Shown here piece after piece: positions 25,749 to 57,794 of a DNA stretch of 64,000 nt (position 1 is its first letter; every line of letters begins with the position of its first letter). The DNA lies in contig CM119372.1 in assembly GCA_051294905.1 (NCBI GenBank), forward strand, positions 6,202,001 through 6,266,000, given 5' to 3'. The notes beneath the pieces were generated by a model. That model searched no databases and was not told the DNA's origin. It was given only the letters and a program-made list of their open reading frames with translations. The translations under genes were made by a program, and so were the position numbers. The DNA is from Botryllus schlosseri. Lineage: Eukaryota.

Positions 25749-25851
25749 ATGAAGTTGCTGATTTTGATATCGATTACTTCCGGCTATTTCGTGGTGCCTT
25801 CAACTTCGCAAGTAACGTGCACCACATGCGGCTGGGGGATGGTTGGGTTGG
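25749..25851 (+). CDS. Gene B exon 1: signal peptide
   Basis: aaacATG; MKLLILISITSGYFVVPSTSQVTCTTCGWGMVGL then G|gtaagt (103 nt, phase 1); joins 30269 in frame. Confidence 0.78.
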
Positions 25852-27544
25852 GTAAGTTTTATTTCGATTTACATTTTATTTTCTCAATGTGCTTAGCAAT
25901 GAAAAGCTATTGAAATACACGAGAATTTATCGCCAATGCTACAGTTATATGTGCGCTCAATATCTCTTGTAAGATGCCGTGTCTAAATCTGAAATCTGAT
26001 TCCCGCGTGAATCTTTCCAATTATTTCGCTGAACTCCAGACAGACGCAATAATGTTTATTTTAACCATAACTATAATCTCGTAGAAGTCGCGCATATATT
26101 GTGATGGGTCATGGACTAATAATGGCATAGTCATATTGACGACAGTTTTAAAACGTATCGTCATGTCAGTATTTGTTAGTTTTGTGTTGCGAAATGTACT
26201 ATCTTTATTTTAATACATTTTCATTACGAGAACAAGCAAGGATGAAAAATTAAATTTGAAAGAGTAATTGCTAGTATTCAGTGTCGATGAAAAGCTCGTG
26301 TTTGTTAACCATTAATAATGCTAATGTCGGCGACAGGATTTTAAAATTATTGGTCACGCGGTTTTCATCAATCTGCAGTATTGGTGATGAGAGGATTTTG
26401 CTAGCGTTGCAGTTGAATTGTTACGTGAAAAGGAAAACGTTTTGTGGTATACGGCCGTAAACCAAACTTTACGCTGATTGGTCGAGAGACAATGGTCATG
26501 GATACGGCGCAACAACGGAGGACGTTGCATTTACGTAAGCCTAGTTGACAGTTGACACTACAATGTATTCCTGTGGCCATGTAGACTGTATAGAAACGAC
26601 AAGATTACAGTTGAATGTTTATTTCATCATAAATAACAGAATTATTAGGAGAGTAAATAAAATATTTAGTAACATATACTCAAATATAATACCGAAATAC
26701 TGCTGTTCATATATGCAGTGCCACCAATGGCAACGACCTGGGGAAGAACAAATCTTTCCACTCATTACCTTCCAACGCAAAGGACAGGACGGATTGGGAA
26801 TGCAGAGTAAGAAGGCAGGACTATTTGTGGCATAGATTTGGGCCTGAATTTGATGGAAATAATAGTGATTTACGTGTAATTATCCAGCAGCAGTCAAATA
26901 AACACTTCTTTTCTGTGATTTCTACCCCAGTTCAAATTTCATGAACTCATCGACGATGTTGTTAATAGTTACGATATTTACAGGGGCACCTTACTTCAAG
27001 CACACCAACTGCAGATGAGGTCTGTTCAGCTAGAATCACCCTAGCAGGTGAAGTAGGCCTAGCTAGATATCCACATGAAAAAAAAGACTAATCTTTGCTA
27101 CATTCACATGATTGATGCTTAGTAGTCTTGTATAGCCCTTTCTTCGTGCATTAACCCCTACAATATTGAATCCCTGTTTATACTGTACTGTCCTTAAAGT
27201 GATTTGAAACGAGATGGTGGATATGGAGTACCTGCAGACTTGTTCCCCTCTAAGCAGTCCAAAACCCTACCAAAATTGCTACTTGTGAGTCGAAGAGCCC
27301 TATGTATATACCCCATTCTGCACATTCTCTCTGTTCTGATGTCCTGTGGGCAAAGTAGCTAATCTGCATATGACTAACTTTGTTGGCTTCTAACCCTAAG
27401 ATTCATGTGATGGCGTTGAAGATTCAATTTCAAGGCTACACGATGGGGATTTTAGATCAGGATCACCAGATGACAATGTAGGAGTTGCATGTGCAGCATC
27501 CACAACATTGGAGGAAGACAGTTAACACGGCATGGAGTTCAGAG

Positions 27545-28548
27545 CAGTGTTGGGATCAAGTCAATACCTTCGCGACACGAGTCATTTCGAGTCATTGCAC
27601 ATTTTGACTCGAGTCAAGTCAAGTCAATCGATTTTCGAACGTGACTCGAGTCAAGTCAAGTCACTCGATTTTTGGAGATGACTCGAGTCAAGTCGAGTCA
27701 AGTCAAATCAAGTCAAGTCAAGTCAAGTCAAGTCACGAGACAGGTCACAATTCAAGTCAAGTTACCTTTTCCAAGTATGAAGCATGATTACGTCATTGCA
27801 TTTTGGTAGCTGTCTGAAGTACAGGTTGAGTGGTCATTGATTTCGAACCGATGGACGAATATAGAGTTAAATATACACGCAAGAAGGCGCTGTATCGCTC
27901 ACATAAGGCTACGTAGAACTGCTAAACTACGTAAGTAATTGCATAGCCTCAGTTCATAGTTACCATCCAAAATAGAGAATAGAGAAACGAATTGATAGGA
28001 TGCAATGCATTAACCATTTACAAATTGATATGCTACAATTTGAGCCTGCGCTAATTGGTGAGGACTATATGTAAACTATATTCGGATTTAATTTCAATAA
28101 AACAAGAGGTTCGGTTTAGGTAAGAACAGAGAAGAGAAATATACATTTTGCTATTAAATTACTTTATAATGCTAGTTTACTCCAAAGTAAGCTGTAAGCT
28201 TCGACTTAGTTTGCGGTCAATATATTTGTTAGAGTGAGAGAACAATGGAGGCTCAGTAAAACGCACGATCATTGAATGATTGGTCGCTCTCGCGAGTTAC
28301 AGCAGCGTTTCGTGAACAATCCGAACATACGCAAGATACAGTGATTTTTATCGACACCGATTACTTGATGACTTGAAATTGACTCGTGAATTTTGCTCCG
28401 AGTCACGAGTCAATCCACATTTTTGATACGCCGAGTCACGTCAAGTCAAGTCATTTTAGCAAAGTGACTCGAGTCAAGTCAAGTCATACGAAAAAAGGGA
28501 ATCGAGTCTGACTCGAGTCAAGTCATGACTCGAGTCATCCCAACACTG
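27545..28548. mobile_element. hAT-type GACTCGAGTC MITE (full length)
   Basis: TIR CAGTGTTGGGAT; flanks GTTCAGAG/GTAAAGAG (6 of 8 match). Confidence 0.9.
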
Positions 28549-28918
28549 GTAAAGAGTCAGCCTTTTTGGAATGCGCGTATCTTCTGCTGCACCACGGAGA
28601 TTGTAACTGCGAATCGCACCTGTTCAGGCGTGATTTTATAAACTGTATTGGTATATCTATAATGCACTAGCAGCAAAATCTTCCTTGCAAAAGTGGACGA
28701 AGCAAATTAATACTATCATTATCATTGTACACAACAGTGGTGCTTTTAGCCCGTAAGGCTTGGTGCCCCACGACATGACAGACAGTATTTGAACCGATCA
28801 ATGCATTTCTTCTTGTCTTTGACATTTTTTCCACTCTCTCATGCACTCGCTCCTGATTCATCGGGTCTTTTGCTGCCGACTTGTAGCTCGGCTCATTGTG
28901 ATTTCTGGGCTTTTTAAG

Positions 28919-30268: not shown

Positions 30269-30412
30269 GCGTAACCGCGGACGAAGCTTGCAATACGTTC
30301 AACGCGTGCGGGAACAAATCAACTTGCACAAGTCGCACGACAATCTTTTTCCTTTGCGAATGCGATCAAAATTTCTCCCCAAACAGAACGACCGTGAACT
30401 TCAATTGTGCAG
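30269..30412 (+). CDS. Gene B exon 2: EGF-like domain (phase 1-1)
   Basis: catcag|GC...GCA G|gtaaac, 144 nt; GVTADEACNTFNACGNKSTCTSRTTIFFLCECDQNFSPNRTTVNFNCA, 6 Cys with C4-x-C5. Confidence 0.82.
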
Positions 30413-33400
30413 GTAAACTCAAGTCATTGTGGAAATGAGCAAAGGTGGTCGAAGCTGTCAGCGTTGCTACCAAAGTAGGCGTAGAAGTAACGTCGTAAAT
30501 CTGTACTCAAGTACAAGTAGAAGTAATGATTTCCAAGATATTTAAGCACCTTTTATGTGGAATTAGAAAATGGTGGTATGACGAGTATTCAGGTAAGTGG
30601 TTTCAAAACACAGAGTTGGTCGTGGGCTTTTAAAATTGCAGGGCTTATCTTGGCGGTTAACGCAATGTCATTAATGGGACTATACAAGCAGCTGCAATTT
30701 TCGACAATATATTCCGTCATCGTGGGGCCATTGAGGCCCACTTGCTATGACAATTTTACTATGACAGGTGACGCAAACTACTCCAAAACTATTTTATACT
30801 TTACAAAATAAGTATAGGTGGAAGTAATCTAAACTTTCAACCAATCGAGTAAGTAGTACGAGTAGTAGCTTACTTATTATAAAAATAGAAGTATTTCGTT
30901 TCTGACCACTTCGGAAAATATGCTTGCAAATTCTTAGACTACAGTGCAAATAGTCGTGCTAGATAAATTCACTTAATTACATTCAATATCGGTAACTAAG
31001 CTCGCAGATAATATAATGTGACAGCCCACCCATTAGGTTTGTATTTGTATTACCTAGTATATGTCATTGAGGTAGTATTTTTATTGCTATGGCGACCAAG
31101 TGTCCGGTAATAAGTACGTTGAATGAACATTGATGGACACGTGACAAAGCATGCGACTTGCTTTCTGAACTGAGCTCCCGAATGGGGGTGAAATTATCGG
31201 ATGTAAACATGGAATGGCAACGACCGATTTTTTTCCTTCGTTCCGCTTCGCTGAGGCTGGGTTCGCGATCACGTTGCTGCAGCGACTATAGGATTTCTGT
31301 ACATCCAATAGCTGGCGTCTGGAGAGAATAATTTATATAGACTGATCTTGATCGAAAGCTAGTGTCGCACTCATTCCGAAAATACAAATTAAAATTCGAT
31401 CAAGGCAGTGTCTTATAGAAGCCTAGAAGTGGGCCGTGTTGCAAGTCGGCAGCTACGGAATTAAAATGAAGAATATCGACCTGGTGTAAATGACCATAGT
31501 ATACCAATATAGTAGACAAACACCATATATACAACAAAAATAAACAAGGCACTAAATGACTTGAGAATCACACAAAATCGCCTTCAGCATCTAAAATCTG
31601 CACAGTTCAGGACAATCATATGGGGCGAAACAATGACCATAACAATGATCGGCGCTCCGATTATCCGGATATTGCCAGTATTTCAGAGTTTGCGGGCAAA
31701 TTCGGTGTGGTTCCGTTCCAGTGCCCTGATCAGATTTTTATTTATATGTCCGGAATCAGTGCGATGGTAAAGTTTCTGTGCTCTGGATTCCAGTTATAAG
31801 ATTGCCAGAAACCCCATATTCGCTCTTCGGTGCCATGAGGCAATCCAGCTTTAGCGAAATTGAACGAAACCAAAAACATGGTCGTTGCCATTCCATGTTC
31901 ACATCCGATAGTGAAGTGGTTCCAAACCGTATGTACGCGTACCACTAGTAGTACGCTCACGAGGCTCACGAGACGATTTTGTTAGCTCTGCGACAGCCTC
32001 TCGACGAAATTGCTACTAAGCAGGAAAACGTCAAGCCGAATTCAGCACAAGGCCGCTAGTGAAATTGTTTAACTTTTTAAGCCAACATATGAGCTTACGT
32101 GAAAAACAAATCGTACCAAATTCAATGATTCAACTCAAGTCCATAGCAAGCGGACTTGGTGATTTATTATTCGTCAGCGGCTACCCGAACGGTCAAAAAC
32201 AGGTCAAATTTGACTGTACTTTACCAAAGTTTAGTGCGCATTCGCCATAGTTCGGACATATCTGAATATGTTTGGCCATTAATTGCTCAGTCAACAAATG
32301 GTTGCACGTTAAAAAGCACATTTTTTTAGTCACAGGCAACTTTTTCATAGGGGGGGGATTTTAGCTCTAATATCGGCCAAGGGGGGCACGAGACGAAAAA
32401 GGTTGGGAACTGCTGCACTACAGAAATCATATGCTGCGCCTTTAAATGGGCAGTTCATTTTCTGTCTCGCTGCCTTCGGCAGCTCAACACGGTGGGGACA
32501 TTTTTGACCGCCTTCATCGCGCGTAACATATGTAAGTGGTACGCGAGCACTGCATAAAACCTCGAAATGGTACGTGGGTGGAAGAAGGTTGGGAACCACT
32601 GCGATAGTGGAATAAAGCTCTCTGAAAATGGTTTGTTGTATCTCTAGTCGTCTACAATATTATGAAGCCTTCCACAACAGATTTCATCAATACGATCTCA
32701 TAATACAGTGTAAATGCTAGATAAATGCACTGACGATCGCTCCCTCGATATCTTTCAATTCACGTAGGACAGTGCTTGTCAACCTTTTTGAGCTCCATTC
32801 ACACTTTTTTTGGGGAAAATAAATTTCATTCGCAAAAGCCAACCGAAAGTTATTATACAAAAAGAAGATACAGATACTTGAGAACAATTTGTTCTGGTGT
32901 GCAACAAATTGGCTGCTAGCTTAGGCCCGCAAGTGTCTCATCAAAAAGTCAACTCTTTATCTCGTTTTGATTTCAACTATTTCACGAAAACCCCCTCTCG
33001 CGTCAAAATTTATAAACGTCAAAATAATTTTTTTTTTTGCCTTTGGTGAGACGGACGGGTTGGTGAGGGCTAACGTAAAAGTTGGGTTTAGGGCAGGGGT
33101 GGGCAATTATTTTTCTCCGCGGGCCAAATGAGAAGCAGAAATATGTTGGTGGGCCGAGTAAGAAATTTTGGAATATCCAGCGTATTGATTTTATTTCTAA
33201 ATTGAAGCAGTGAACTGCACGAATTGGTGCTCCGTGACTGCACGAATTGGTGCTCCGTGGATGTGTTGATGTTGGGAATGACAAAGGGACGGCCGGGGCC
33301 TACGATACTTAACTATCGTAGGCCCCGTGACGGCTAATTACCCATCATATTTTTATTTGCCGTCATATTTTGAAACAATGTTAAACATGATACGTTTTGA

Positions 33401-34469
33401 ACTCTCTTTAAACCCGTATCCGCGCTTTTCTATCAATAAATTAAAATGCATTAGGAATGGCCGAAACAACCCGTCGTCATCCCCCAATCGTTGGTTGCGC
33501 CCCCCCTCCCCCATAGAGGTATAAACCAAGCTCCTGGTGGCTTCCCCCCAGACAAGCCCCCATCGAGATGAACGATACACGAGATGTCTTGTATACACTA
33601 ATTGGCAACGTTTGTACCCGAATCGCGCTAATTGCGGCATTTTTTCATGATTCATGATCCAATCGGTCAATAATATAGGTAAATGCAAATATATTGCTAT
33701 ATTTTTTAACCTCTCTCGGCCCACGTAGTGGCCTACTCAGTTTTACCGCTGGAGCTGAGTGAGGTACTGTCTTGGAAATATTCGGAAGGGCCCGTTGGTA
33801 TAATTACTTCGTTACATGTTGTTATTTCGTGACTTCCCGTCTGCTATGTGATGACATATTGAAATCGCCAAAGCGTACCAAACTAAAAAGATGCACCCGA
33901 TTCCCGATTAGTATTTCTTCACTGGCAAATATTGCCTATGGACAATTGGACTTCGTGGTTTTCAGTCAACATAAGGGCAGTCCTTTTCGGCCAAGGTTTT
34001 CTCGCTCACAACCGTATCATACGTTGCTTCAACTTAATTTCAGTTTTTTTTTCGCTTTCCCATTTTCTGTCCCGCGAATAAATAAGAAGACCCAAGAAAG
34101 TCACGACACCGTGTATTCGGCTCTTTAGCTTAATCCAAATTAAAAGTTCATAACAGTTCGAAAACCTTCAATAACCAGCTTCCTATAGACCACGACAAGT
34201 CACCCCGAATCGCGCCACACGTGAGTAAAATGTTCAAGATTGTAATCATTCAAAGATTTAGGAACCAATTCGCTAATTCAAATTGAATATTGACGGTCGC
34301 AAACACACGCTAATTTATTATGTGTTGAGCGCCTCATAATTATTGTTTAACTGCTGCACGCAACGTCTGCAGGTTGGCCACGTCTGGCCTGTTAAAATAA
34401 GGATGAATTGGCTGCAGCGTATTTGTAATGCTAAATACTATCCAGGACTTGAGATTACCGGACCACCAT

Positions 34470-35086
34470 TAGGGCTGTTCAAAAATAACTTTTTCTTCCC
34501 GATTCAAGCCGTTCACCTCTTAAATCGTCAGGTTGCAGTAGAAAACCTTGCTCACCAAATTTCACTCGATTCCAATCAGTAAAGGCATCCGCAGATCCAA
34601 TTAAAATTTTTAATTTATTATGGAAAATAAAAAAATAAAATTTCCAAATTTTTCTGCCAACCCCATGAAATTGTTGAGCTGTCTTCAAAGACGTTGCAAA
34701 ACAAATTTGAGTCAATTCCGACCAGTAGAAGCAGAGTTATGTGAGTTTTTCGATGATAATCCTCGGATTATCCTTGATTGGTGAATAATCCGCGATTTAT
34801 CAACGAAAAACTCACATAACTCCGCTTCTACTGGTCGGAATTGACTCAAATTTGTTTTGCAACGTCTTTGAAGACGGCTCAACAATTTCATGGGGTTGGC
34901 AGAAAAATTTGGAATTTTTTTTTTTTAATTTTCCATAATAAATTAAAAATTTTAATTGGATCTGCGGATGCCTTTACTGATTGGAATCGAGTGAAATTCG
35001 GTGAGCAAGGTTTTCTACTGCAACCTGACGATTTAAGAGGTGAACGGCTTGAATCGGGAAGAAAAAGTTATTTTTGAACAGCCCTA
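34470..35086. mobile_element. Young foldback hAT-type MITE
   Basis: About 290-bp near-perfect inverted arms starting TAGGGCTGTTCAAAAA; perfect TSD ACCACCAT; explains the mirror ORFs 34479-34715 and 34841-35077. Confidence 0.95.
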
Positions 35087-38000
35087 ACCACCATCTATCA
35101 CAATGCTTCTCAAACTCTACGCCGCCGAGACACCCTGCCAAGCCCCTGCAATTATGTACACAGTGTTATTTATAAGTATCTCGCAGAAGTAGTAATTTAT
35201 TATTTCTGGGCTCTCGCGGCGGTTTCCTCGAGAATCATTATAGACAGATATCGCAAGCTGAACATATGTCAACTCCATCATGTTCTACTCCAAAAGGAAT
35301 CAATAAATCCATTACTAACGTTGAAATGATGAGTTAAAGCATTTGCTTATGGCATCACAAAAGGAATGTTACTTACAGCTGATATGAAGATTGTACGATG
35401 TTGCACACCCGGTCAATGTTCTGAAACATAAACTTGCCCGTTTATTGTTAGAGCTAGTCATTGATATATTTATTGCGGATCTGGTACACCCCAGTATACG
35501 TCATCTGAGTGGTACACCCTTTCACAATTATGGTACACCCCAGGGTATACGAAACACCCGGTTGAAGAGCCCTGGTCTACTCAGATTGCAAGAACGGGAC
35601 TATTCGGTGCCAACTGTCGGCAACGGAGCATATCCATATCCAGCAACAGTGATTTTTGGCCAAGGTTTTGTCGCCGTTGATGTTTTTGGCGCAGCATTTT
35701 ATCAGCGTTATGTTGACCTCAAAATGAATGTGTCTCATAGACCTAAAATTGCTCGCTATACACCCCTACACTAGTTCATCCCAACGGTCTTCAACCCTAT
35801 TTTCCGGAAAAACCAGTCGGACAAATCTTACAATGAATTCAAACGAAAGTTCGGCAGATTCTCATGATCAAGCCATATTTTATGTGTGTCTTGCTTATTG
35901 GCTACATATAGTATCAAACGCAGTGACCTTGGATACGTGAAAACTATCGCAGGATTTTTTGCAATAATTCAAGAAATACTACATACATATTAACAAATTG
36001 CTCTGGCACCGTGTCGACCCAAAATTATACCCTTTGCGGCCCATACTTTAATAACCCTTGAAAATGTAAAAATTGGCGTGACAGTAACTTGCAAATGAGA
36101 GTCTTTAATGATGGTATTTACTACTATTCTCGTGCATCGCGCTAATCGAACTGTTATTACGAACATATGATGAATCTTCAGCAAAATAAAGCAGAAAGTC
36201 AATTTGACGTCATTTTCTTCAGTCTGTCCCGGCTACGACGGGCTGATGTACTGTATGTCTCCCCCTACACCGGCTTTCAAACCAGGCTTTTTGGTTACGA
36301 AACAATTGTAGTACGAAAATATTAATTCACTATACGGCTTGTTAGAGACAAAGTTATTTTCAAAGCTACGAATTGCGGTGCGTCGTAATTCATACAAGTA
36401 TTTATAATTGCGTCGCAACTACAGAAGTTAGGGAGACACTGCCTTGAATTTCTTATTAGGTTCATTTGAATTAATCCACGTCGGAAAAATTACCAATTAT
36501 TTACGGTTTTCATCCGCACTCATCCGGATATTCTTTCGCACCACCTTCGCCATTCTCACTGCGAATTTTTCATTCGCACAAGTGCGTACCATCCCACAGG
36601 TTGAAAAGCACTGGAGTAGACAAGACTATAAGGCCAATCATATTATCACATTTATTTGGTAACACAGGTTACCAAGTGTACCATATTTTCCACTCAAATG
36701 ATATATAACACGTGAACAAATAAAATATAGTTCGACTGGATTTGGGCATAAGCTCTCTTGACCTATATCAGCACCAAGGCATCAAGCTAGTGATGTTCTA
36801 GTGCAGAACTGCATCTCAGCTCATCTGTACAAATGATACTCTGTTAGTCCGCTACAACGTTTTTCGAAACGTTTTTTTGGATTCTTTGACTAGATTTTCC
36901 GATATAGTCGGATAGTTGGGGGATATTCTTGTGCATGATGTTCTCCGAAACATATACACGACTGGGTAAAGTGCGGTTACAAAAAGATCGCTGATTGGCT
37001 AAAACCTTCGATAGTGATATGTCGGGCCGTCGACAAGGTCGGCACCCAATATTCCCATCGTTGCAATCTGAGCCCCGCAGTGCTAATGCGACCCACAGAG
37101 AAAATAATGCACCCAAATTTGTGATCGTGTGCATCACACGGCATGTTTCATAGAATTGCGTTGCCAGCAACTGATGGGTTGTCTGTGCGTCTTCTATGTC
37201 ATATATGACATGAAGACGAAGCATACTGACATAAAAAATGCATCCCATTTGACTTGTGAAGCTTGCATCGCGAGATCCAACTATAAAACTCTAATTTGGG
37301 TAGCGGTATATAGTCGGATAGTTGGGTGATATTCTTCCGATTCGGACGGATTATTTCACAGACACTCAACCTGTCGGACGGATTTGAATTCTCAAAAATC
37401 AAGATCCACTCATCGCTGCGCACAATACGTCGCATGAGTTATGAGTTAAACTGGATGCCGACAAGTTGCGTGATAATTCAGGAATACGGGCGCTCCAAGC
37501 TAAATGACTGTCACGGAGAACTGGCTCACGAATTGCTGTGAGCACGAGAACGTGGCGCTTAACAAACAACTCATTTTAGACGATGAGAACGTGTATTTGC
37601 TCGTCTAATCGTGAGAAGACAAGGTAGCAACCATATTGTTACAAAACTGTAACATTCAGAAATCCTACACAACTCATCTGAAATAGCGTCGCGACTCACC
37701 GGTTGGGAAACACTGATTTAGGACACTATAAAGGTGATAATAATCATTCAGTTAGTAGGCTACCGTGTCTCGCTAGCCTCGATCGCTTAAGTTCATGAAA
37801 GGCGTCGTCAGGTATCCGCACGTATCGTGCGCAGCTCATAGTTCAAAATGCAATTGACCATGATACTTTCGTTGCATTTGTATTTCTTTGCTGAAATATT
37901 ATTACTTTTGTGGTAACTATGCCCGTCTCCCATGTTAGAAAGCACAGCGTTGTGCTGACGTGGTTGCTGTACGGGCCCGCGGCCTCTGCCAAATTTGAAC

Positions 38001-38160
38001 AAGTGGCTTGCGAACCGTTTTGAGTTGGCGACCCCTGATTTATATTGACATCTAGAAACCTAGGTATGTTGATGTTTAATAATCATTACTTCATTAGCGT
38101 GAAACGACAAATTTGCATGGAGCTCGGACTAATTGGAAAATATCCTTACTCTATTTATAG

Positions 38161-38367
38161 TTACAAAATGTGGTAAACCGCCGAATTTTCAAAATGGCAA
38201 GTTTGGCGATGGATGCTCCTCTGATAGTGCGGTAAATACAACATGCATCATAACCTGTAACGATGGATATCATCGGAATGGAGATAACACGGCAACATGT
38301 ATTGATTCCGACTTGGCGAGTAATAGCAATGCAACTGGAGAATGGAACTATGACATTACATGTACTC
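38161..38367 (+). CDS. Gene B exon 3: six-Cys sushi/CCP domain (phase 1-1)
   Basis: tttatag|TT ACA AAA TGT...ACT C|gtaagt, 207 nt; CGKPPNFQNG...C...C..TCNDGY...C...GEWNYDITC. Confidence 0.9.
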
Positions 38368-38712
38368 GTAAGTTGCCTGTATACAGACTATATTACGACT
38401 AAAGTTCAGATGTTGCAAGAATGATTGCATTTTTTATTTGCTACACTTATATTCATGTCATTGAAATTGGGTCAATATACTAATCAAATTTTATGAAAAG
38501 TCGCATTGTTTGTTTACTTTCCACACAGCAAACCTCTGTCACATCTGTCTCAATTAGCCTCCGTTTCTTCTTGACGTTTCTCCTCGAGAACAGCACATCT
38601 GTGTTCTAAGCTGTGTCAAATACACCAATGAATCAGAAAATCAAGTCAGACTGGAAAAGTAGCATATCTACAACTTTCAAATTTTAATCTTATACTGAAA
38701 TGTTTTTCATAG

Positions 38713-38922
38713 CCATTACTTGCAAGACATCTCCAAATGTGCCGAACGGGTTTATAGCAGATGGATGTGGCAGTGGAAGCGAATACAGTGACACATGTGA
38801 AATAACCTGTTATGAGGGTTACTATAATAGCGGGGAGGAAAAGATCACATGTGTCGATGAGCCTGGGCCAGATGACACAAACAAAGAAGGCGAATGGAAT
38901 TACGGGGACACAAACTGTACAG
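38713..38922 (+). CDS. Gene B exon 4: six-Cys sushi/CCP domain (phase 1-1)
   Basis: tttcatag|CC ATT ACT TGC...ACA G|gtatta, 210 nt; CKTSPNVPNG...CEITCYEGY...C...GEWNYGDTNC. Confidence 0.9.
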
Positions 38923-39006
38923 GTATTAACTACGCATACAAGGGTCTGTAATCTCATGTTCACACATCTCATACACTCTGCCCAATACACCCTCATTGCT
39001 ACATAG

Positions 39007-40491
39007 CAGAGTTGCATCAGTTGTAATTTGTAATTGAGCTAAATGTAATTAATTACATTTTTTCATGCATTTGTATTTGTAATTGTAATTGTAATTGAAG
39101 CATTTCTGTTTTGTGTAATTGTAATTGTAATTGTAATTTGATAAAAATTTTGCTCAATTACAGTTTCAATTAAATTGTTATGGAAACCTGACAATCACAA
39201 CATAAAATAGTCAATCAATCATTTATTCGTCACACCAGTGAAAATGCGGTACGGACCAGGATGACGACGAGGGGCCGCAACCCGCAAGGCCTTAAGGCCT
39301 TAGTACACAGTCGCCACCTGTAATAGTATGCCTATTTGCATCGGTGTTCTGTTTCCATACTTCAGTGGCAACAGAAAACTTTGTGAATTATAATATAGGC
39401 TAAACCAGTGGTTCTCAAACTGGGGGGCGTGCCCTCCATGGGCGGCGTGAAAGCATCTGAAGGGGGGCGCGAAGCTCCGGTAAACTGAAATTTTTTCCGC
39501 GCTTAGCGCGATTGACCTCCATTTCATAGTTATTGCTCTGTGTATAGTCCGAATTTCATATTGGAGAATTCTCTCATCAACAGTCATAACCTTCCATACC
39601 ATCAAACCATCTGTAAGGATTGCTAACATTCTGGTTTCATTGTGTGATATGACGATAAGGGGGGCACGAACTATTTCACTGTCATAAAGAGGGGCGTGTC
39701 TGAAAAAGTTAAAGACCCAGTGGGCTAAACTAAATCTTAATATTTCAAAAAAGGATGATCAGCAAATAAACTCTTCTGAAACCTGTGCTGAACCATTTCC
39801 TACGCCACAGTCAAGAGTTTTTTTTTAAATCTCTGACCAGTACCGAGGCTTGCTGCAACAATTGCAAAAAGAAATTTAAGTTTCCAACCAAGGCTTTATC
39901 AAATTTGATCACGCATCTGTAGATATGTTACCCCAATCTAAACTTTTCGCACCCTAATGTTCATCAAATGCAATCTAACAGTTTCTGAGCAAGTGAAAAC
40001 GTAAATGCGAACCAAAATGTTGTAATTTGTAGTTATCAGGAGGTTCTTTCCTTTTGCATTTATTTTAATTTTACACACCTTATCGGTATCATCTTTATCG
40101 CTGACGCCTTACCAATTACATTTCATTATCCTCATTCAGCTAGCCTAATCGTTTGATTGCATTTCATTGACTGTGCTGTAGCCTATTCGCTGTTAGTCGC
40201 TCAAACTTTTGGTTGTTATCAGTCGCTTCAAATTTTCAAGTTGAAACATTTTTCTGTGTTTGTAGTTTTCAGTACTCATGATTAGGAATAGTTCGAATAC
40301 GTTCGAGTTTTTTTTTTAATTAAAGGGTATTCTACGTATCATGATTGAAACATGAATAGCTTGAGATTGTTGCTAATTACGTCGCTACGGTTGTTGAAGA
40401 ACACCACCTCTCTACCGAGTCAATTACATGTTTACAGTTATTGTAATTGCAATTGTAATTGAACTGAATTATTGTAATTGATCCAACTCTG
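39007..40491. mobile_element. hAT-type element with (TGTAAT)n subterminal repeats and a nested MITE (39406-39722)
   Basis: TIRs CAGAGTTG...CAACTCTG, TSD CTACATAG/CTACCTAG; the nested element has perfect TSD GGCTAAAC. Confidence 0.85.
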
Positions 40492-41596
40492 CTACCTAGC
40501 ACTACCTATCCTATGTATAATATACATGAAAGGTGACTGACCATACTAAACTTGAATATGACTTTTTGAGCTACATTCATAGCGGTTTACAATTACTAAC
40601 GCATTTTAAAACAAACTTGTTCAAAACATGGCCCTTGTTTAAAACATATTTTTCTGTTATATTTTCATCATGACGTCGCAAATCTTTAATTGTGTCGTCA
40701 CAATGCATTGACATTGACAATTGAAAATATAGGGAAATATTACGGATGGTGTAAACGTGAGGTTCACGGTCGCGTTCGGTGTGTCAACCTCAGAAAACTA
40801 GAGGTTCGCGATCGGAAACGAACCTTGGTAGATTCTACACTGTGAACCCTTTTCATATAATAAATTTTCACGTCATTATAACATCTTGGCTTGAAATAAT
40901 TTCACACTCTGCATAGTGCTGGCAGATTGAAAGGAATTTCGGCTCTAAACGGACAGTCGAACATGCATCTTATTTCCCTTTTCAAAAATTATATTTGCTC
41001 CATTAGAAAAGTTGGCCCGAAATATTCAGGTTTCCGTTTCTGAACATTTAGTGACAATCTGCTGTGAACTTGGCCCACAATGAATGTTATATCAATTCAT
41101 TGACATCAGCAAAATTTACACAAAGAATTCATCGTTGTCTAATATAAAAAGTATTGCTGATGCACGGGATCTATCTTTATTTGGTATGCTTATTGCATAA
41201 TAAAACCCAAATCTTCTCCGGGTTTTGGCTACTGTAAAACGTAATTTTGTGGTAACATCTGCAAGTCTTGCAAGTCCTCGTGGAAATTGTTGGCAAATTT
41301 TATGGATTTTAAGGAATTGTGATAACATTGATTGTTCCGTTTGATACGTTTCGTGATGCTCAAAAATTCAGCTTTTTTCAGCATTGTGGCATAATGTGGC
41401 CTGTACATTCGCCAGGTATCATGTACGTACACCAATATATTACTTCGCGTAAATGTAGGGTTAGAGTTGGCAATATGACGTCACGTCACATGACACATGT
41501 ATTCACGTCTATTGTATATTGATATTTCATTGCCATGAAATATCTAATTAGCATGGTGCTCGGACTAATTGGAAAATGTCCTTACTGTGTTTATAG

Positions 41597-42720
41597 CTAT
41601 GAAATGTGGTGAACTTCCGAAGTTTCAAAACGGGGAGTTTGGGGATACATGCTCCTGTGAAAGTGCAGTCAATACAACGTAACAATACCTGTAACCAGTG
41701 TTGGGATGACTCGAGTCATGACTTGACTCGAGTCAGACTCGAGTCAACTTTTTCGTATGACTTGACTTGACTCGAGTCACTTTGGAAAAATGACTTGACT
41801 TGACTTGACTCGAAGCTTCAAAAATGTGCATTGACTCGTGACTCGGAGCAAAATTTACGAGTCAAATTCAAGTCATCAAGTAAACGGTGTCGAATAAATC
41901 ACTGTATTTTGTGTATGTTCAGATTGTTCGAGATACGCCGGTGTCATTTGTGAGACTGTCTGAGCAACGATTCATTCACCAATTTACCGTTTCACTGAAC
42001 CTCGATTGTTAGATCACAAATAAATGGACCGCAAACTGAACAAGAACAGCTTACGTTGTCGTAGTAGTAGTAGTAGAAGAAGATTTAACTAAATAGCAAT
42101 GTGTCTCTGTTTCTTAGGCGGCCCAATGCTTACGTTTCGCAGCGCTCACCTTTACCAAACTTCTTGTATGATTTAAATCGAACAAATATAGTTTGTGCGT
42201 TGATATTCTAACGGGTGTGTAGATGGGTATTGTAGGCTATCGTACCATATCAATTTGTTTATTAGGTCCTATATTTTGGCTGATAATAAGTGACTATAGC
42301 ATGTAGCTGTAAAGTTACTCACGTATTTTATTAGCAGTTCTACGTGTGCGCGGGGGATACAACGTCGTTTTGCATGTATATTTAACTAGATATTCGTTAT
42401 TTGATTCAAGAAAAATGATCAATTAATCTGTCTTTCACCCGGCCAGCAAAATGTAATGACTTTGAATCATCACTCATACTTCGAAGATCCAATTTGACTT
42501 GAATTGTGACTTGACTCGTGACTTGACTTGACTTGACTTGACTCGACTTGACTCGAGTCACCTCCAAAAAACGAGTGACTTGACTTGACTCGAGTCACCT
42601 TAGAAAATCGATTGACTTGACTTGACTCGAGTCAAAATCTGCAATGACTCGAGATGACTCGTGACTGGAAGGTAGTGACTTGATCCCAACACTGCTGTAA
42701 CGATGGGTATTACCGGAAGG
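41597..42720 (+). pseudogene. Dead sushi pseudo-exon (copy of 38161-38367) split by a MITE
   Basis: The upstream intron and acceptor match 38115-38160; MKCGELPKFQNGEFGDTCSCESAVNTT* then the MITE, then DGYYR; 3' part lost. Confidence 0.85.
41696..42694. mobile_element. hAT-type GACTCGAGTC MITE (reverse orientation)
   Basis: TIR CAGTGTTGGGAT; CTGTAAC duplicated on both sides. Confidence 0.92.
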
Positions 42721-44033
42721 GGTTTTTAGGTGGTATTTATTGTATTCAAGCCGTTTGTCGACTACTATGGTCATTGGTCATTTACACCTGGCCAGTTCTT
42801 TACATTTTTATTTCGTAACTGTCGACTTGTAGATACTTCTATAGGCTTTTATAAGACACCGCTTGCACGGATGAGATGGCGAGGAGGAGCCTAGATAACC
42901 CTCGAACACATAAGTAGGATTCCTGGAGTCGACTCGGCGGTTTTAAGTAGTAGTAGTAAGTCCAAAATGTTCTGTAGCTGAAGCCACTGTAAATAGACGA
43001 TGTAAAAATAACGTCACCTGTGGTGCAATTTCACATTCGTATTATCGCGATGCATAAAATTCACAACTATAGGAAAACAAACCAACTGTTAAAATTGGTT
43101 AACTAGGATACCAAATAAAACAGACTAATTGATCAGTATATAGCAGTGCTTTTCAACTTTTTTGAGCACCATTCGCACTTTTTTCACGAAAAAGAATTCA
43201 TTCAAATCAACCAAAAATTGTTATACAAAAAAATGAAGATACTTATCAAAATTTTTTTCGGATGTTCAACAAGTAGGCTATACTGGTTTAGGCCATGAAG
43301 TGTCTCTTTTAAAACACATTTTATTTCCTCCTTTCTGGTTTAACTACAGTGTACTAAAATCCTTTTCTGTCAAATAGTTGTTGGGTTTTGAACAAGAACT
43401 CCTAGCGCTTGGATGGCCAGGTCTTCATAACAACCACCTAACACTCCCATCCAAAATACACCATATTTTCCACGAGTGGCAAACGCGTTCTGACAGAAGC
43501 AAATGTTTTAGTGGCATATCGCGACCCAAGCCTCACACTTCAAAAAGAATGCATTGTTAACATTAATATGCTACGATTTTACGGACATGTCAAATTGTAC
43601 GGGTCGCGGTATAAAAAGTATAATAACCACTGCCTTAAGAGCCCTTAAAGGAAAAAACAATATTTACAGTAACATGCCAATGTGAGTCTATAATGATGAT
43701 ATTTACTGCTATCTTCGCGCCTCGCAGCAATCAATCCGTTATTGAAAAATAAGATAATTGTTCAGAGAAAGGGAGCTGAGTGTCGCAGGCTCAGACGAGC
43801 TGATGCACTGTATAGGCCGAGCCTACCGACCACTAATCCCGCTTTTGAACCTGTTTCCTATTAGGCTTATTTAAGCCTTTCCACGTCAAAAAGGGACAAT
43901 TATTTACGATTTTCATCCGCGCACTCATCCGGATTCCCATTCGCCTCATCCGCACCACGTTCGTCACTCGCACTGCAAATATTTTCATGCGCACGAGTGC
44001 ACACCACCCCACAGGTTGAAAAGCACTGATGTA

Positions 44034-44994
44034 GGGGAGATGTGGTACCGATGGATCACTGGGACCGAAAATACTAGAAAAATTCTCCATTATAATTCCA
44101 TGATTACACTCCGTGAATTTGTCTACAATTACCTACTGACAGAATCTTTCCTCACATGCAAAAAAATTCGACCTGCGTGAGTTATGGGGTCTGTGACGAA
44201 TGATTTACGTTTTAATGGGTGTAAAGTAAATTTGGATCGACATTTGCATTTTTCTTTATCACCTTTCAGACTAACAAACCCGCCATAATTTTTGATGTGA
44301 AGTATAGGGCTTGTATCAGGGTTTATAATGGCACATATTTTTTTAAATCAATACCATCCTCGAGTGGACTATTTTCAAGTCAATTACAATATTTATGGGG
44401 TGGGGGACCTATGATACCATAGCCAAATCAAGCAAAATAGATGGACCAACTAATCACTTAACAACAGAGACTCGACTACATACATATAAGCTGTAAATCA
44501 TAGTTACCTGTGGTGTTTTATCGCTATTACGAGGTATTTGAATGTAAAAATGTCGATTTGCGGGTAATATGTACGTGGCATTATTTTGTAAGTTTAGGCG
44601 TAAATCAGAACATGATTTTATGCCAATATTTGAGTTGAGATAATCTACTTTATTTTTGAAGGTCGCGACTAAACATTCTTCATTGGCTTGCTGTAGCTTA
44701 GCTTATAGTACACAACAAAACAAGTTAACAAATTTGAGTTTTTGAGCGTATGTCTCATAGGTCTCATGGTTGTGTGCCTTTGGACCCACCGGGTGGGGAC
44801 CGATGACACGTTCGAGCAACAAATTTTAAACGTTTATAATATTTTTTGAAAAGGCGGATATTCATGTAAATGTCCGCGATAGATAGACCTTGTATGGAAG
44901 TGTTGAGACAGCAAAAGATCTACTATTTTCGGCTGAAGATTTGAGGACCAGAGATCATTTTGCAATTTTTGATCCATCGGTACCACATCTCCCC
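44034..44994. mobile_element. Non-autonomous DNA transposon with TA TSD (Tc1/mariner-pogo-like)
   Basis: Perfect 25-bp TIR GGGGAGATGTGGTACCGATGGATCA flanked by TA; absent at the paralogous site near 54725. Confidence 0.85.
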
Positions 44995-45033
44995 TACGAT
45001 ATATCATACTCACCGTATAATTGCCAATCACAG

Positions 45034-45150
45034 ATATCGACGAATGCGCCTCGAGTCCGTGCGACACCAACGCCAACTGCACCAACTCAAAAGGAAGCTT
45101 CACTTGCACATGCAATACCGGATATTCCGGAGACGGATTCACTTGCAAAC
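45034..45150 (+). CDS. Gene B exon 5: calcium-binding EGF (phase 1-1)
   Basis: cag|AT...AAA C|gtgcgt, 117 nt; DIDECASSPCDTNANCTNSKGSFTCTCNTGYSGDGFTCK. Confidence 0.9.
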
Positions 45151-50060: not shown

Positions 50061-50787
50061 CAGGGCTGGCCAACCTTTTCAGCCAAAGGGCCACATTCGA
50101 TTGACGAACTTTTGCGCGGGCCACTATCCGCGCGAAGCGCGAAAATTTTTGGAAGTTCATAGGTCAATAATATTGTCACTTGACTATATTGCGGGCCTGC
50201 TGTGTATCCCTGAGCTAAGTTTGCGAGGACTGGGCTATTCAGCGCATGGACATATCGATATCGAAAGCTGCGACCAACATGCGTCAATCATTTCGTGCCT
50301 AGGTCTAGTGGACGGTCTTACTGCGAGCGCAAACGCAAGGTCGCATATGTTGAACGACACTTTGTCTCATGATCGCTAATATAGTTCGACTCAATCTGAT
50401 ACTTGGTCATTGGGTGTTCTTCAATTTTCACAAAAATGCAACAATATTAAGAACAAGAAATCGAGTGACAACATATTGCGCTAAGCTTGTAGAAAATTTT
50501 TACCTTTGATAAATCTATCGCAAATTATTCTGCTTTATTGTAGTGTACGAAGATATACCAATATATGAATGGTTGATGGATCTGTCAATGAGTCGAAACT
50601 GATAGTTTAGTCATCACATCTCAAGTGTTGCGGCCTGACTAATCAGATATTTGGTTGGCCTTGCAAGTTCACAATCTGTGCAATCCGTTTTTGATGATAT
50701 TAGAAATTTCGGAAATTACCTCGCGGGCCACTCAAAACCTTCTCGCGGGCCACATGTGGCCCGCGGGCCACGGGTTGGCCGGCCCTG
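50061..50787. mobile_element. hAT MITE nested in the CMC element
   Basis: TIR CAGGGCYGGCCAACC, perfect TSD CGGTAATC. Confidence 0.92.
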
Positions 50788-50821
50788 CGGTAATCTAATC
50801 CTCACCTAATTAAGGGGAAGT

Positions 50822-50962
50822 GTTTATGCTCTTATTATAAAAGTTGGGAAAATTGTGTAGCTATAATTGTGTATTAAAGTTGGGAAAATTGTGTAGCTGT
50901 AATTGTGTAGCTATAGTTTATGCTCTTATTATAAAAGTTGGGAAAATTGTGTAGCTATAATT
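50822..50962. repeat. Short tandem duplication array
   Basis: AAAGTTGGGAAAATTGTGTAGCT three times and GTTTATGCTCTTATTATAA twice. Confidence 0.85.
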
Positions 50963-50979
50963 CTAATGCTTATCAACTG

Positions 50980-52880: not shown

Positions 52881-54766
52881 GTAATAGGGCTGGCTAGAAT
52901 TGAATATCAGTACTTTAATAATACAATTCCGAATCCATGCATTAATATCTGCAATATTAGCGAGCACGATTATGAGTACATTGAGTAGGTATGTTCAACT
53001 CGATCAAATCCTGTCAAAATGCTACCATCATATCCATTCCTAGTTCTAAACCACAGAACAGTAGCTCTTACCTCATGTTGATCGAGAAATCAAGTTTGAT
53101 AGCAATAATAGGACGTACTATATATAACAGTATGAAATGAACTCTAAACAACACCGAACATGCGTCATTGCTATAATATAAGGATTCAATAACCAACCAA
53201 GCGCATTCTCGCTGTGGGCATAAGCCACTTCTGACTAGATAGATAGATAATTATATTTGTGTGTAGCGCTTTACGCTATATACACAGTACGACTATAACA
53301 CTAACCGTATCATTGACTCACTACGCTAACTAGAGCCAGTAGTTATAAGCAACCAACGAGGTAAGTGACGCAAAGCAGATTCCCTAATGCTTCTCTCGCC
53401 GCTGACAGCAAGTTCGAACTTGCCAGACGAAAATTTGAGTCACGTGACTGTGTGCACTGAGACAATGCGCATGTAGGGAAAAACGCTAATGATCTCATCC
53501 ACGAAGGCCACAACGAGACGATCGTTAACAATGTTCAGTGATGTTCAACGCAGGAACTTCGGTAAAACACCTTATATGACGGTACAGTACGGTATAGTTT
53601 ATGACATGCTCGAAATAAAAGTTCGAAAGAACCATCAACTCCTCAATACCAGCATATAATTCCGATCAAGCCTAATATATAATCCCGATCAAGTCATAAA
53701 CGAAATACAGATTCATTGTGCGCAGACGCCATTTCTGCCGACCGGTTGAGCCCATTTTAGCGAAAAACGCTATAAACGTATCTGACGACGTGAAGCACGC
53801 GAAAGGTTCGTCACATATCTTTCGGAATTGCGAATGTTCACCGCAGGAACAAACAGTAACGCGACAGCTGAAAAGGCATAGAAATCGTAACGCCTAAAAG
53901 CTTGAAATGAAGGCCCGACATGGAATATATTGACCATTCAATGCCAACATGCATAATGCGGTTATACGCCACCACGTCGCTGAAGAATCAAGTCAAGTGA
54001 CGATTTTCTTTCAAACTATATTCTTGAAATATTTTGAAAGGATGAAATATGTGCACTTATCAGCACAGGAACTTGAGATGTTGGCTTTTTAGCTGAAACA
54101 ACGTGTAAATATCCGCACACTGTCAGAATGTAATATCCATCGGACATTCGACTTGGAATTTCAGTGGACTCTCCTAAATGTTGGTTCGGAGGTATGTTCT
54201 TGGATATCCGAGAAGGACAGTACCAAATCTGGATAGCCTAGTATATGCCCCCGCATGTCCAAGCGGACACTCAGACACTCGGACACTTCTCGGACCCAAC
54301 TCGGATGGCCCACGACAATTGGGTGTTTGCTGGGAAGAGCCCATGAAGTGAAAAAAATAGTATTCACAGTAACTTGCCAATGTGAGATTTACTGCTATCT
54401 TCGTGCCTCGCAACAATCAATCCGTCATTAGAAAATAAGATGATTGTTCAGAGTAAGAAAGTTGAACGCGCGTGTCACAGGCTCAGACGACCTGATGCAT
54501 TATATAGGCCTATAGTCTACCGGACACTGCATCCCGCTTTCGAACCTATTTCCTATTAGGTTTATTTGAGCTTTTCCACGTCAAAAAAGTAACAATTATT
54601 TACGATTTTCGTCGGCACTCATCCGTATTCTCATTCGCCTCATTCGCACCAAGTTTGTCACTCGCACCGCAGTTTTTTTCATTCGCACAAGTGCGTACCA
54701 TCCCACAGGTTGAAAAGCTCTGATGCAGGTTATATCATATACTCACCGTACAACTGCCAATCACAG

Positions 54767-54883
54767 CTATCGACGAATGCGCTTCGAGTCCGTGTGACAC
54801 CAACGCCAACTGCACCAACTCAGAAGGAAGCTTCACTTGCACATGCAATACCGGATATTCCGGAGACGGATTCACTTGCGAAC
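54767..54883 (+). CDS. Gene B exon 6: calcium-binding EGF (phase 1-1)
   Basis: cag|CT...GAA C|gtgcgt, 117 nt; xIDECASSPCDTNANCTNSEGSFTCTCNTGYSGDGFTCE. Confidence 0.88.
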
Positions 54884-55378
54884 GTGCGTCGAGTTACGCT
54901 TTTTACTCTGTAGTCCGGCACGCGTATCATTTGTGGCACCCGAGATGATTTTTCATGACACGCTAAATACTTTGACGTACACGACATAAACCATGTTTGT
55001 TGCAAAACGTGCAACATTAGTTTTCAAAATGGAAAAGGCTCGTACGTTTTTCGAACGTTGATCGGGAAATGCAGCAATCCAGCTCGATTTGCTGTTATAA
55101 TGGGCAAACTACTCAGGACTCCATTGCGTTCAACGTCAAAAATACGCGCTTTCTCGTTTGTAACAATCTGTTACGTGTAACATTTCTTGTCTGCTTCATA
55201 CACTAGTATTCCTGAATTTTCTCGCATCTCGGTATCCGGTAAACTCATTACTCATACGACGCATTTTGCGTCCCGAGATAACGTTGTGATTCGCACCTGC
55301 AACACCAAGGTTGCGGATTTGAGTCCGGCCGCAGTTGACTCCATAACCACACCCCAAGTGTTGGATGTTTATCTAGAG

Positions 55379-56879
55379 CAGAGGTCTCAAACACGCGGCC
55401 CGCCAGAGCATTTTGTGCGGTCCGCGACGGCATTTTGGAATTTCAAGTATTCAACAATATATCCAAGTGCTATAAAACTTTTTTAGATATTAGAACTTAT
55501 AGTTCACCCCAAAACTACTATAAAAATCACTGAAATCTCAACAAACTTCACTATCACATCACTTTCAAAAGCTACCATACGGCAGAAGATCAACTATTAC
55601 GTCACATTTCTAGTTAAAGATGATAAAACATGAACCGTTGATAATTCGTGACTGAAAATTGTGATTTGGTTTGGTGCGATCTTCTCGTGAAATTGCTCGA
55701 TTTCAGATTGACTGGGGGATTAAATAAAAATGACTCGAGTTAAGTCGGGTCAAACGTTAAAATCAGAGAAGGACTTGCGACTCGCAACGATGACTTGGTA
55801 ATCCTACGGACGCAACAATCTATGAAACTGCCATGCGGAATAGTAATATATCAAAAGGTCGTAGCTTGTGTTGCGTTGAGTATATAGCTGTCTGATCAGG
55901 TCAGCATAGCAAGCATTGGCATTCTGTGAACCCCGTGACGTATAGTTGGTTACGTACTGGGTGTTGTTTGTTCTCTTTATTCATGTTATTATCGGTGGCG
56001 AGCAAGGTAGTAGTACGCTCTACAGCTGTCGCACCAATGAATTCATCGCCGATTGGACATTTCTATTCCAGGGGTGCTTAACCAGGTTACGTATACCCCA
56101 CCTGGGTACGAAGCACCCAGCAGGGTGTACGAGATGCATTGTGGAATTTGGCCAATATGCTGTGGAATATTTCCTGGCGCATTTGCTCAACTGGAAAATA
56201 ATTTTCGCGCTACGTGCGATTTTATGTGAATGGACTTTCTGATTTTAATATAGGTACCATCAGAAGTTGTGTTGAAAATGGACAGGGGCTACGAGAAATC
56301 TCATTGGAGGTACAATGGGTACGATCGCTAAAAAGGTTAAGAAGCAATGCTATTAATAGGCTTAATAATGAATATATTCAAGTTCATTGATATATTCCGA
56401 TAATAATCGAAGGCAAAATATGACGCAGTTTTAATTTGACTTTGGCAATGACAGTAACAGTATCACGACTATATCAAAACCAGGATTAGGCTATACCGCT
56501 CAAATGATCTGATATCAGATCAATCTTCAGTGGATTTAAAAATATTCTACATAAAATTGTGGCACGTCAAAGGTCCACCGACAGTTTTACGATGTCATGA
56601 TGCATCCTCTCGCCTGATGTCTTTAACTCATTAATTAAAAAATTATGCCCGGCACAAACACAATTTTATTCAAATACATGAATATGTGATTTTTTCCGTT
56701 TCAGGCGTGAATAATACAATAATAAATTACATTTACACGATGTTTGTGGAATGCCTGTCCCGTCAAATAAGGCTACTTGGAAATATACATTGAATATCCC
56801 TATTATTGAAGCTGCGGCCCGCGTCGTCATCAAAAATTAGGAAATTGGCCCGCGAGCACATTTGAGTTTGAGACCTCTG
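55379..56879. mobile_element. hAT (Charlie-like) element with a nested MITE
   Basis: TIR CAGAGGTCTCAAAC, perfect TSD ATCTAGAG; absent at the paralogous site near 6980. Confidence 0.92.
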
Positions 56880-57621
56880 ATCTAGAGGCTCCTATACTCG
56901 CCATCTCGTCGGTATAAGCGTTGTCTTGAAAAGATGCAAGTGCTACAAGTCGGCAGCTACGGAATCAAAATAAAGAATACGGGCCTGGTGTAAATGGCCA
57001 TCGCATTCGAAAAGCACCACGAACACCACAAACAACAACGGTGTATTGTGCGCTGATTTACGATTTCATTCGATTTGTCATATCTCATGGTGGGTCGCAC
57101 AATAGAAGTTGGATGAAAAGTGGGTCGCGGACTGAAAAAGGTTTGAAAGCACTGATTTAGTCTGTGGGAGTGTTTACTGTGCAGTCGGTGCGAGCGCGAA
57201 TATTTTATGAAGTGGAATGTCAGCGCTATTATATCGTGTATGTCCGTGCATGTCCACGCCAACTACTTTACATTAAGGCCTACATTTCTCAGAGGCGACA
57301 TATACATAGAGTTTTAGCTGCTTTACTTACAGATTAATTCTGTACTCCGCTTTTAGGCTTATCTTTATTCTAAATTACTTGGTACGATGTCCCACCCTGG
57401 CTGCATAGAGGCAAAGTTACTCGGGATTATACATGTGGATTTTCGGTGGCAAAATAACAGTATGACAGTTTCTGTCTTCGGCGACAAATTGAACCATTTC
57501 TGATGTTTTTAAACTGAATCCTTATAACTTATGTAGCAGCAATATCAAATCCATAAATTGCCATGAAATATCACTGGCGCAGCTGGCCAAGTACGACTAT
57601 TGAAATTCAATTTCATTGCAG

Positions 57622-57794
57622 ACACGTCAACGCAAGATATCGCTCTACCAATTATGGGGGCCGTGCTGGCATTCATCCTCATCATTCTACTAGCCCTTCT
57701 CGTCTTTGTGCGGGTCAGAAAGCGCAGGTCGTCAAAGCACGACTTGTCCCACGTCAACATGCATGCTATTGGAGTCCAACCGCCCGCGCATTAA
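57622..57794 (+). CDS. Gene B terminal exon: TM helix and short tail
   Basis: tttcattgcag|AC; (H)TSTQDIALPIMGAVLAFILIILLALLVFVRVRKRRSSKHDLSHVNMHAIGVQPPAH*. Confidence 0.9.

Follow-up and report, generated by a model that had tools for sequence, protein, structure and literature searches.

A fourth tandem EGF-repeat membrane-protein gene in Botryllus schlosseri with sushi exons likely copied from an upstream cluster

The window analysed here comprises 64,000 nucleotides (nt) of contig CM119372.1 of the Botryllus schlosseri assembly GCA_051294905.1 and corresponds to C2:6202001-6266000 in a genome of 495.5 Mb, where C2 designates this contig; coordinates are window positions unless they are prefixed C2. 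Its plus strand carries a seven-exon gene, here called gene 4, that is the fourth tandem member of a family of EGF-repeat membrane-protein genes and the only one of the four that contains sushi exons. A script that sought AG..GT-bounded pieces of the lengths given in an earlier annotation of this DNA (the original prediction) recovered each internal exon, and the seven exons join into 1071 nt encoding 356 amino acids (aa) plus a stop codon, with no internal stops. All six introns have GT..AG borders and are in phase 1, and all five internal exons are of the symmetric phase 1-1 type. The gene covers 32 kb, its introns being swollen by repeats. The encoded protein consists of a signal peptide, an EGF-like module, two sushi modules, two calcium-binding EGF (cbEGF) modules, one membrane span and a tail; the exon scan and Pfam together confirm the phase-1-joined exons, the open frame and the module order that had been predicted. 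The last exon provides a single hydrophobic span of 22 residues (308-329), followed by a basic tail of 27 aa that is devoid of tyrosine, and the ectodomain holds 32 cysteines and eight NxS/T sites.

Exons 3 and 4 each carry the GEW motif and the six cysteines of a Sushi/CCP module and match the Pfam Sushi family (PF00084) with 29.2 and 24.7 bits, respectively (1.2e-6 and 3.1e-5; cut-off 20.7). Among solved structures in the PDB, the best matches of exon 3 are CCP modules of complement receptor 2 (CR2) and factor H; exon 4 matches CCPs of beta-2-glycoprotein I and factor H, with E-selectin marginal at E = 0.29. Exons 5 and 6 are recognised both by EGF_3 (46.3 and 46.8 bits, cut-off 28.5; exon 5 at 5e-12) and by the cbEGF family EGF_CA (PF07645; 37.8 and 37.4 bits, cut-off 27; exon 5 at 2.3e-9). 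Spliced exon 5 opens with D-I-D-E-C, and exon 6 with P-I-D-E-C, the first acidic position being gone. Exon 2 is assigned as EGF-like only by its cysteine spacing, C-x5-C-x5-C-x9-C-x-C-x14-C, which fits EGF. It has no Pfam match above cut-off (S_locus_glycop scores 19.9 bits against a cut-off of 24), and its family profile matches nothing at E < 1 among the solved structures. AlphaFold models of exon 2 (four sequences; pLDDT 48.6) and of exon 4 alone (42.5) were both too poor for a fold search.

Hidden exons were sought among the plus-strand open frames of at least 38 aa between 24,000 and 59,000, of which the 126 with at least two cysteines, out of 242, were scanned. The only ones to score were exons 2-6, together with a BED zinc finger and a primase finger below threshold. 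Pfam found no lectin, Ig or ZP domain in the model exons or in the 126 scanned frames, and to that extent the predicted lack of these domains is borne out.

Gene 4 is not the isolated, unrecognised receptor that had been proposed. Its sister genes were mapped by tblastn and a phase-1-1 exon scan on 112 kb of upstream sequence. Exon 7 has four matches in the genome, all on the plus strand at C2 6.11-6.26 Mb, and exon 2 has six (four full, two partial), all on the plus strand at C2 6.09-6.26 Mb. Exons 1, 2 and 7 recur in the same order in genes 1-3 with 74-89% aa identity (74-82% between exon 1 and the first exons at C2:6094150, 6153828 and 6192601), a recurrence that places the exon model beyond chance. 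In an alignment of exon 2 from the four genes, 28 of the 47 columns are invariant, and for the membrane exon of gene 3 with its flanks the mean column identity is 89% over 1 kb. The four genes lie on the same strand and have in common the exons for the signal peptide, the first module and the membrane span with its tail, and the EGF exons of the sisters are likewise all of phase 1-1. They differ in what lies between: genes 1, 2 and 3 carry 14, 5 and 3 cbEGF exons, respectively, without any sushi exon, whereas gene 4 carries two sushi and two cbEGF exons. The two EGF exons that directly follow exon 2 in the sisters are lost from gene 4. Its exons 5 and 6 represent a duplication of the last cbEGF exon of gene 3; they are now 9.6 kb apart, agree in 36 of 38 aa and 86% of nt, and the duplication includes about 280 nt of flank. 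Within gene 2, a unit of partial first module and cbEGF exon is repeated several times at C2:6161460-6168825, with partial-module copies at 6164121, 6164652 and 6168489 adjoining cbEGF exons, which demonstrates that internal tandem duplication is still going on in the family.

With exon 4 as query, 92 sushi-exon matches were found in the genome, 90 of them besides the two exons of gene 4 itself. They are located at C2 5.74-5.98 Mb and, on two other contigs, at C4 1.18-2.26 Mb and C5 4.41-4.43 Mb; none of the 92 lies inside genes 1-3. The closest counterpart in organization belongs to a cluster of sushi exons about 280 kb upstream of gene 4 on C2, with which a block of the window is collinear in exons and introns alike (Table 1). 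This block comprises exons 3 and 4 with the 345-nt intron between them, the next intron and, of a third sushi exon, the 5' half. Exon 3 is 82% identical in nt to the exon at C2:5962453, and exon 4 is 78% identical in aa to that at C2:5981235. Since homology of the introns is retained, the block is a DNA-level copy rather than a processed one.

Comparison with the sisters delimits the DNA that is peculiar to gene 4. In the 300 nt past exon 2, similarity is 83-92% among genes 1-3 and only 51-55% between these and gene 4. Homology to gene 3 ends just after the exon 2 donor and resumes as pieces of the gene 3 intron at 31107-31479 and 32416-32769. There follow 12.2 kb that have no counterpart in gene 3, whose intron is continuous at this place, and homology restarts at 44998 and runs into exon 5. 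Both edges of the 12.2-kb stretch hit one point of the gene 3 intron, some 36 nt short of the cbEGF exon. The edges read ..GGACA on the left and GATA.. on the right, at most 5-6 of 8-9 bases agree, and neither end of the stretch is an inverted copy of the other. At the right edge (44997) a younger high-copy repeat ends, and RNA reads have loose ends at this position.

Taken together, these alignments suggest that the sushi exons were likely copied from the upstream cluster into gene 4. In such a scenario, a block of sushi exons together with its introns would have been copied from about 280 kb upstream and would have entered the phase-1 intron in front of the last EGF exon of gene 4, which would thereby have become an EGF-sushi-EGF chimera within an EGF-repeat family. 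Parsimony favours a gain in gene 4 over a loss in three sisters, and the extra stretch presumably arose by a single insertion event. The original prediction had not recognised the architecture: the order of the modules is indeed real and unusual, which follows from the recent origin of the chimera, but the parts are familiar, the sushi exons being likely copies from a nearby cluster in a gene of an EGF-repeat family.

According to PMC3927616, class 1-1 modules in the sense of Patthy are sets of exons that enter a pre-existing phase-1 intron of a recipient gene, and phase-1 introns around modules are the general rule for shuffled extracellular modules. Gene 4 likewise has symmetric phase-1 exons with one module each within a recipient phase-1 intron; phase-1-flanked exons, a recipient intron and an identifiable source are all present, with a presumed direction of transfer, and on the description given in the same source it belongs to this class. 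Exon shuffling itself is a known process, to which gene 4 adds a member. Most textbook cases are ancient and have been deduced from protein architecture alone. In gene 4, unlike most of these, source and recipient are still visible less than 300 kb apart and retain intron homology.

Table 1 Features of gene 4, its sister genes and the inserted DNA (window positions unless prefixed C2).
Feature	Position	Strand	Description
Exon 1	25749..25851	+	103 nt; ATG, signal peptide, two cysteines; phase 1 at end
Exon 2	30269..30412	+	144 nt; six-Cys EGF-like module, family marker; phase 1-1
Exon 3	38161..38367	+	207 nt; sushi/CCP module 1, six Cys; phase 1-1
Exon 4	38713..38922	+	210 nt; sushi/CCP module 2, six Cys; phase 1-1
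Exon 5	45034..45150	+	117 nt; calcium-binding EGF; phase 1-1
Exon 6	54767..54883	+	117 nt; calcium-binding EGF; phase 1-1
Exon 7	57622..57794	+	173 nt including stop TAA; stalk, membrane span, tail
Extra stretch	32770..44997		12.2 kb without counterpart in gene 3 intron; sushi block and transposon debris
Sushi block	38087..41695	+	collinear with C2:5956811-5962660, exons and introns, 71-91% nt
Third sushi exon, 5' half	41597..41693	+	dead; 73% aa to exon 3 over 26 residues; 81% nt to upstream cluster exon
Non-coding transposon, ~1 kb	41694..42695	-	splits third sushi exon; CTGTAAC on both sides
Third sushi exon, short remnant	42696..42722	+	3' of transposon; remaining 3' part lost
Gene 1	C2:6094150-6114248	+	signal peptide, first module, 14 cbEGF exons, membrane exon; no sushi
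Gene 2	C2:6153828-6181746	+	5 cbEGF exons; no sushi
Gene 3	C2:6192601-6209898	+	3 cbEGF exons; no sushi
Gene 3 last cbEGF exon	4920..5036	+	92% aa to exons 5 and 6
Gene 3 membrane/tail exon	7723..7901	+	76% aa to exon 7

The reading frame of gene 4 is intact, as are its 12 splice sites and its 32 cysteines. Relative to the nearest paralogous exons, none of the 32 cysteine codons is changed, as compared with 61 of the 316 other codons; this retention has a P value of about 0.001, which rises to about 0.04 on the assumption that only half of the changes belong to the gene 4 lineage. The dN/dS ratios, obtained from small samples, range from 0.25 to 0.57. Contigs of the sequencing runs X1, X2 and X3, from three studies, carry exon 3, and those of X3 also exon 4. 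These contigs are taken as DNA because they cross exon-intron borders, and their content indicates that the sushi block is no assembly artefact.

The likeliest reading, of moderate confidence, is that gene 4 is an intact, exon-shuffled member of its tandem family that would serve, if expressed, as a surface molecule for binding or adhesion. Judged from its domain content, the protein would form a glycosylated, disulphide-rich stalk in the plasma membrane, its sushi/EGF ectodomain would bind a partner, and the short basic tail without tyrosine would suit an adhesion or ligand-type surface molecule rather than a signalling receptor. The protein itself is an ordinary mosaic of common extracellular modules, and its value is that of a worked example: the source block, the recipient intron, the unaltered sisters and the later decay can all be read within 300 kb, which is rare for the shuffling of animal surface proteins. 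If expressed, gene 4 would show by what route this animal's clusters of immune-type surface genes give rise to new architectures; if silent, it shows how many such trials fail.

Several observations weigh against this assessment. Raw reads of four bulk RNA-seq runs from two studies (X9, X12, X13 and X14; 6-13% of each run was read) gave, among the joints listed, none that links two model exons, and RNA depth is 0-0.14 on the bins with exons 1, 2, 3, 6 and 7. The coding sequence shows no clear excess of conservation over its flanks: exon 7 stands at 87-94% and its 3' flank at 87-93%. Signs of decay comprise the destroyed third sushi exon, the loss of the sister-type EGF exons and the repeat-swollen extent of 32 kb, and the upstream copy of the sushi block has decayed as well, its exon-4-like exon being split by a 2.9-kb insert. 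As to the mechanism of transfer, for which carriage of the exon block by a transposon was considered, no convincing target-site duplication or terminal repeats were seen at the edges of the 12.2-kb stretch. Finally, every element of the putative function is read from domain content.

The RNA result is an absence of support for expression and not proof of silence. RNA of the animal is present in the same runs, as their reads on transposons and on a spliced minus-strand transcript of intron 5 show; the null is nevertheless weak because sampling, from unspecified tissues, was shallow, and a gene restricted to certain cell types would escape. A single-cell run, X16, gave no reads whatever and does not bear on the matter. 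The original prediction had named a lack of spliced reads across the junctions as evidence that would tell against it; none were found in the four runs, which at this depth counts against it only weakly.

The main rival to an intact, functional gene is a young chimera that is silent or becoming a pseudogene, with exons that are open only because the duplication is recent. This would explain the missing junction reads and the near-zero exon depth in the four runs, and it agrees with the breakage of one of three sushi exons by a transposon, with introns heavy with repeats and with coding sequence that is no better conserved than its flanks. What it accommodates less readily is that the frame, the splice sites and the cysteines have all survived although about 19% of the other residues differ from the paralogues, and that dN/dS is below 1; the RNA evidence in its favour is in turn limited by the shallow sampling and the tissue source. 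A silent chimera is regarded as a real possibility, if clearly the less probable of the two.

A further alternative is that the mRNA skips the sushi exons and encodes only a signal peptide, the EGF-like module, one or two cbEGF modules and the membrane span, like gene 3, the sushi exons being mere passengers of an intron. As the internal exons are all of phase 1-1, skipping would keep the frame; moreover, the sushi block lies within inserted DNA, and the plain architecture without sushi does exist in gene 3. Exons 3 and 4, however, keep good acceptors and donors and all of their 12 cysteines, and neither splice form is backed by transcripts. Skipping as the rule is unlikely.

The interpretation of the original prediction, a polymorphic self/non-self recognition receptor with combinatorial exon-skipping isoforms, fares worst and is very improbable: the chromosome arm is rich in fast-duplicating genes for sushi and EGF surface proteins, contigs of other individuals differ by 0.3-3.6% from the window around the gene, and Botryllus fester genes do skip ectodomain exons according to PMC12582321, yet gene 4 lacks an Ig domain, a three-span anchor and a tyrosine motif, spliced reads are absent from the four runs, and modules of this sort normally have symmetric phase-1 exons. 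The combinatorial isoforms had been deduced from the phase-1 introns; such introns are what shuffling leaves behind in general (PMC3927616) and give no indication of isoforms. The receptor role itself finds no backing in a tail without tyrosine, nor in an ectodomain without the Ig domains of Botryllus fester/FcoR. It is also unlikely that the 12.2-kb insertion, with its three sushi exons from a fast-duplicating cluster, minted a new EGF-sushi-EGF surface protein that selection maintains, that differs between individuals in presence or form and that has a part in cell-cell or self/non-self recognition.

The fester family and fester co-receptor (FcoR) proteins of Botryllus schlosseri are the obvious comparison within the animal. 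In PMC12582321 and PMC12065747 they are described with Ig-like domains and one sushi domain, without EGF, the fester family having three membrane spans and FcoR having long tails with ITIM/hemITAM motifs. On these descriptions, gene 4 resembles them as a sushi-bearing type I surface protein in a cluster that evolves by duplication and recombination, and differs in having EGF modules, no Ig domain, a single span and no tyrosine in its tail. Identity with fester/FcoR was rejected on the single span, the tyrosine-free tail of 27 aa and the lack of an Ig match in Pfam, with the proviso that PMC12582321 used structure-based detection.

The combination of modules in gene 4 also recalls better-known proteins. 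Selectins have a C-type lectin domain, an EGF module, CCP repeats with six cysteines, a membrane span and a short tail. Gene 4 is similar in that an EGF-type module precedes six-Cys CCPs in a type I protein with a single span and a short tail; in contrast to selectins, it has no C-type lectin, and EGF modules also lie between its CCPs and the membrane. Identity with a selectin was rejected, as neither the exons nor the 126 scanned frames contain a lectin domain and exon 1 leads straight into the EGF-like exon, as it does in the sisters; in addition, complement-regulator CCPs outscore E-selectin for the sushi modules of gene 4. The vertebrate SUSD1 and SVEP1-type proteins are secreted or membrane-bound mosaics of calcium-binding EGF and sushi modules. 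Their mix of EGF and sushi is similar to that of gene 4, and they differ in the order and number of the modules and in having further domains.

A profile of exon 2 built from the four genes was compared with 1.84 billion representative proteins by HMMER and gave one match, P0001, with E = 1.3e-6. P0001 was rejected as a relative: it is a GDSL-lipase-type protein of 2943 aa that carries short Cys-rich repeats, and the alignment spans no more than 20 columns at 25% probability. Exon 3, exon 7 and the open frame of exon 4 gave no match in a protein word index, a weak negative because the index needs shared 5-residue words. The lack of a credible relative fits a young, lineage-restricted family, with the qualification that the libraries may hold few proteins of related animals. 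The predicted lineage specificity is accordingly upheld, both by the exon 2 profile and because gene 4 is a young chimera.

Other observations concern the upstream cluster and the borders of the inserted DNA. In the cluster, C2:5973995-5981879 contains a tandem duplication of about 4.3 kb with three sushi exons (5973995/5978311, 5976270/5980570 and 5976725/5981208), and a possible membrane exon lies downstream of these at C2:5983379-5983537. The end of the high-copy repeat at 44900-44998, which abuts the intron 36 nt before exon 5, yielded 1826 first-look candidates, of which 40 were scored; nearly all of these are 93-97% identical over about 98 nt, and they are spread over many contigs. One X1 contig matches the window from 45032, 2 nt before exon 5, and is preceded by 255 unlike letters, the last 30 of which look like an EGF-module end that joins on without an intron. 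These 30 letters have no match in the assembly at three or fewer mismatches. Possible sources of the loose end are a transcript, a retrocopy and another haplotype.

The transposon that splits the third sushi exon has further copies of its family at 27544-28550 and, in the sister gene, at C2:6201941-6202915. The family is rich in sub-terminal repeats of the TGACTTGACTCGAGTCA type and bears an apparent duplication of 8 bp. Reads have loose ends at 41696, the transposon border within the third sushi exon; RNA run X12 reaches a depth of 16-20 on the repeats of the transposon, with odd joints of the 'goes back' kind at 42519-42553. The BED zinc-finger frame noted above (39770-39919, plus strand; 21.1 bits against a cut-off of 20.6) is probably a relic of a hAT-type transposase and sits in a stretch of about 1.5 kb that is not found in the upstream sushi copy. 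Intron 2 contains a near-perfect inverted repeat of 303 nt at 34469-35087, 97% complementary, with a 13-nt spacer.

The minus-strand spliced transcript in intron 5 extends over 48600-54000. Its joints are 49116>51160 (23 starts in X14 and 4 in X13), 51307>51972, 52071>52130 and 52290>52527; they all appear as CT..AC on the plus strand, the reverse complement of GT..AG. With no joined open frame above 73 aa, the transcript resembles an antisense non-coding RNA. Beyond gene 4, the minus strand carries an open frame of 248 aa at 60428-61174 in which a basic stretch comes after a hydrophobic span and for which Pfam has no match; the frame possibly represents an exon of an adjacent membrane-protein gene on the opposite strand. 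Between genes 3 and 4, the plus strand at 21582-23706 holds pol remnants of an LTR retrotransposon, with matches to the RNase H of reverse transcriptase (RT) at 1.3e-13 and to the integrase core at 3.9e-12.

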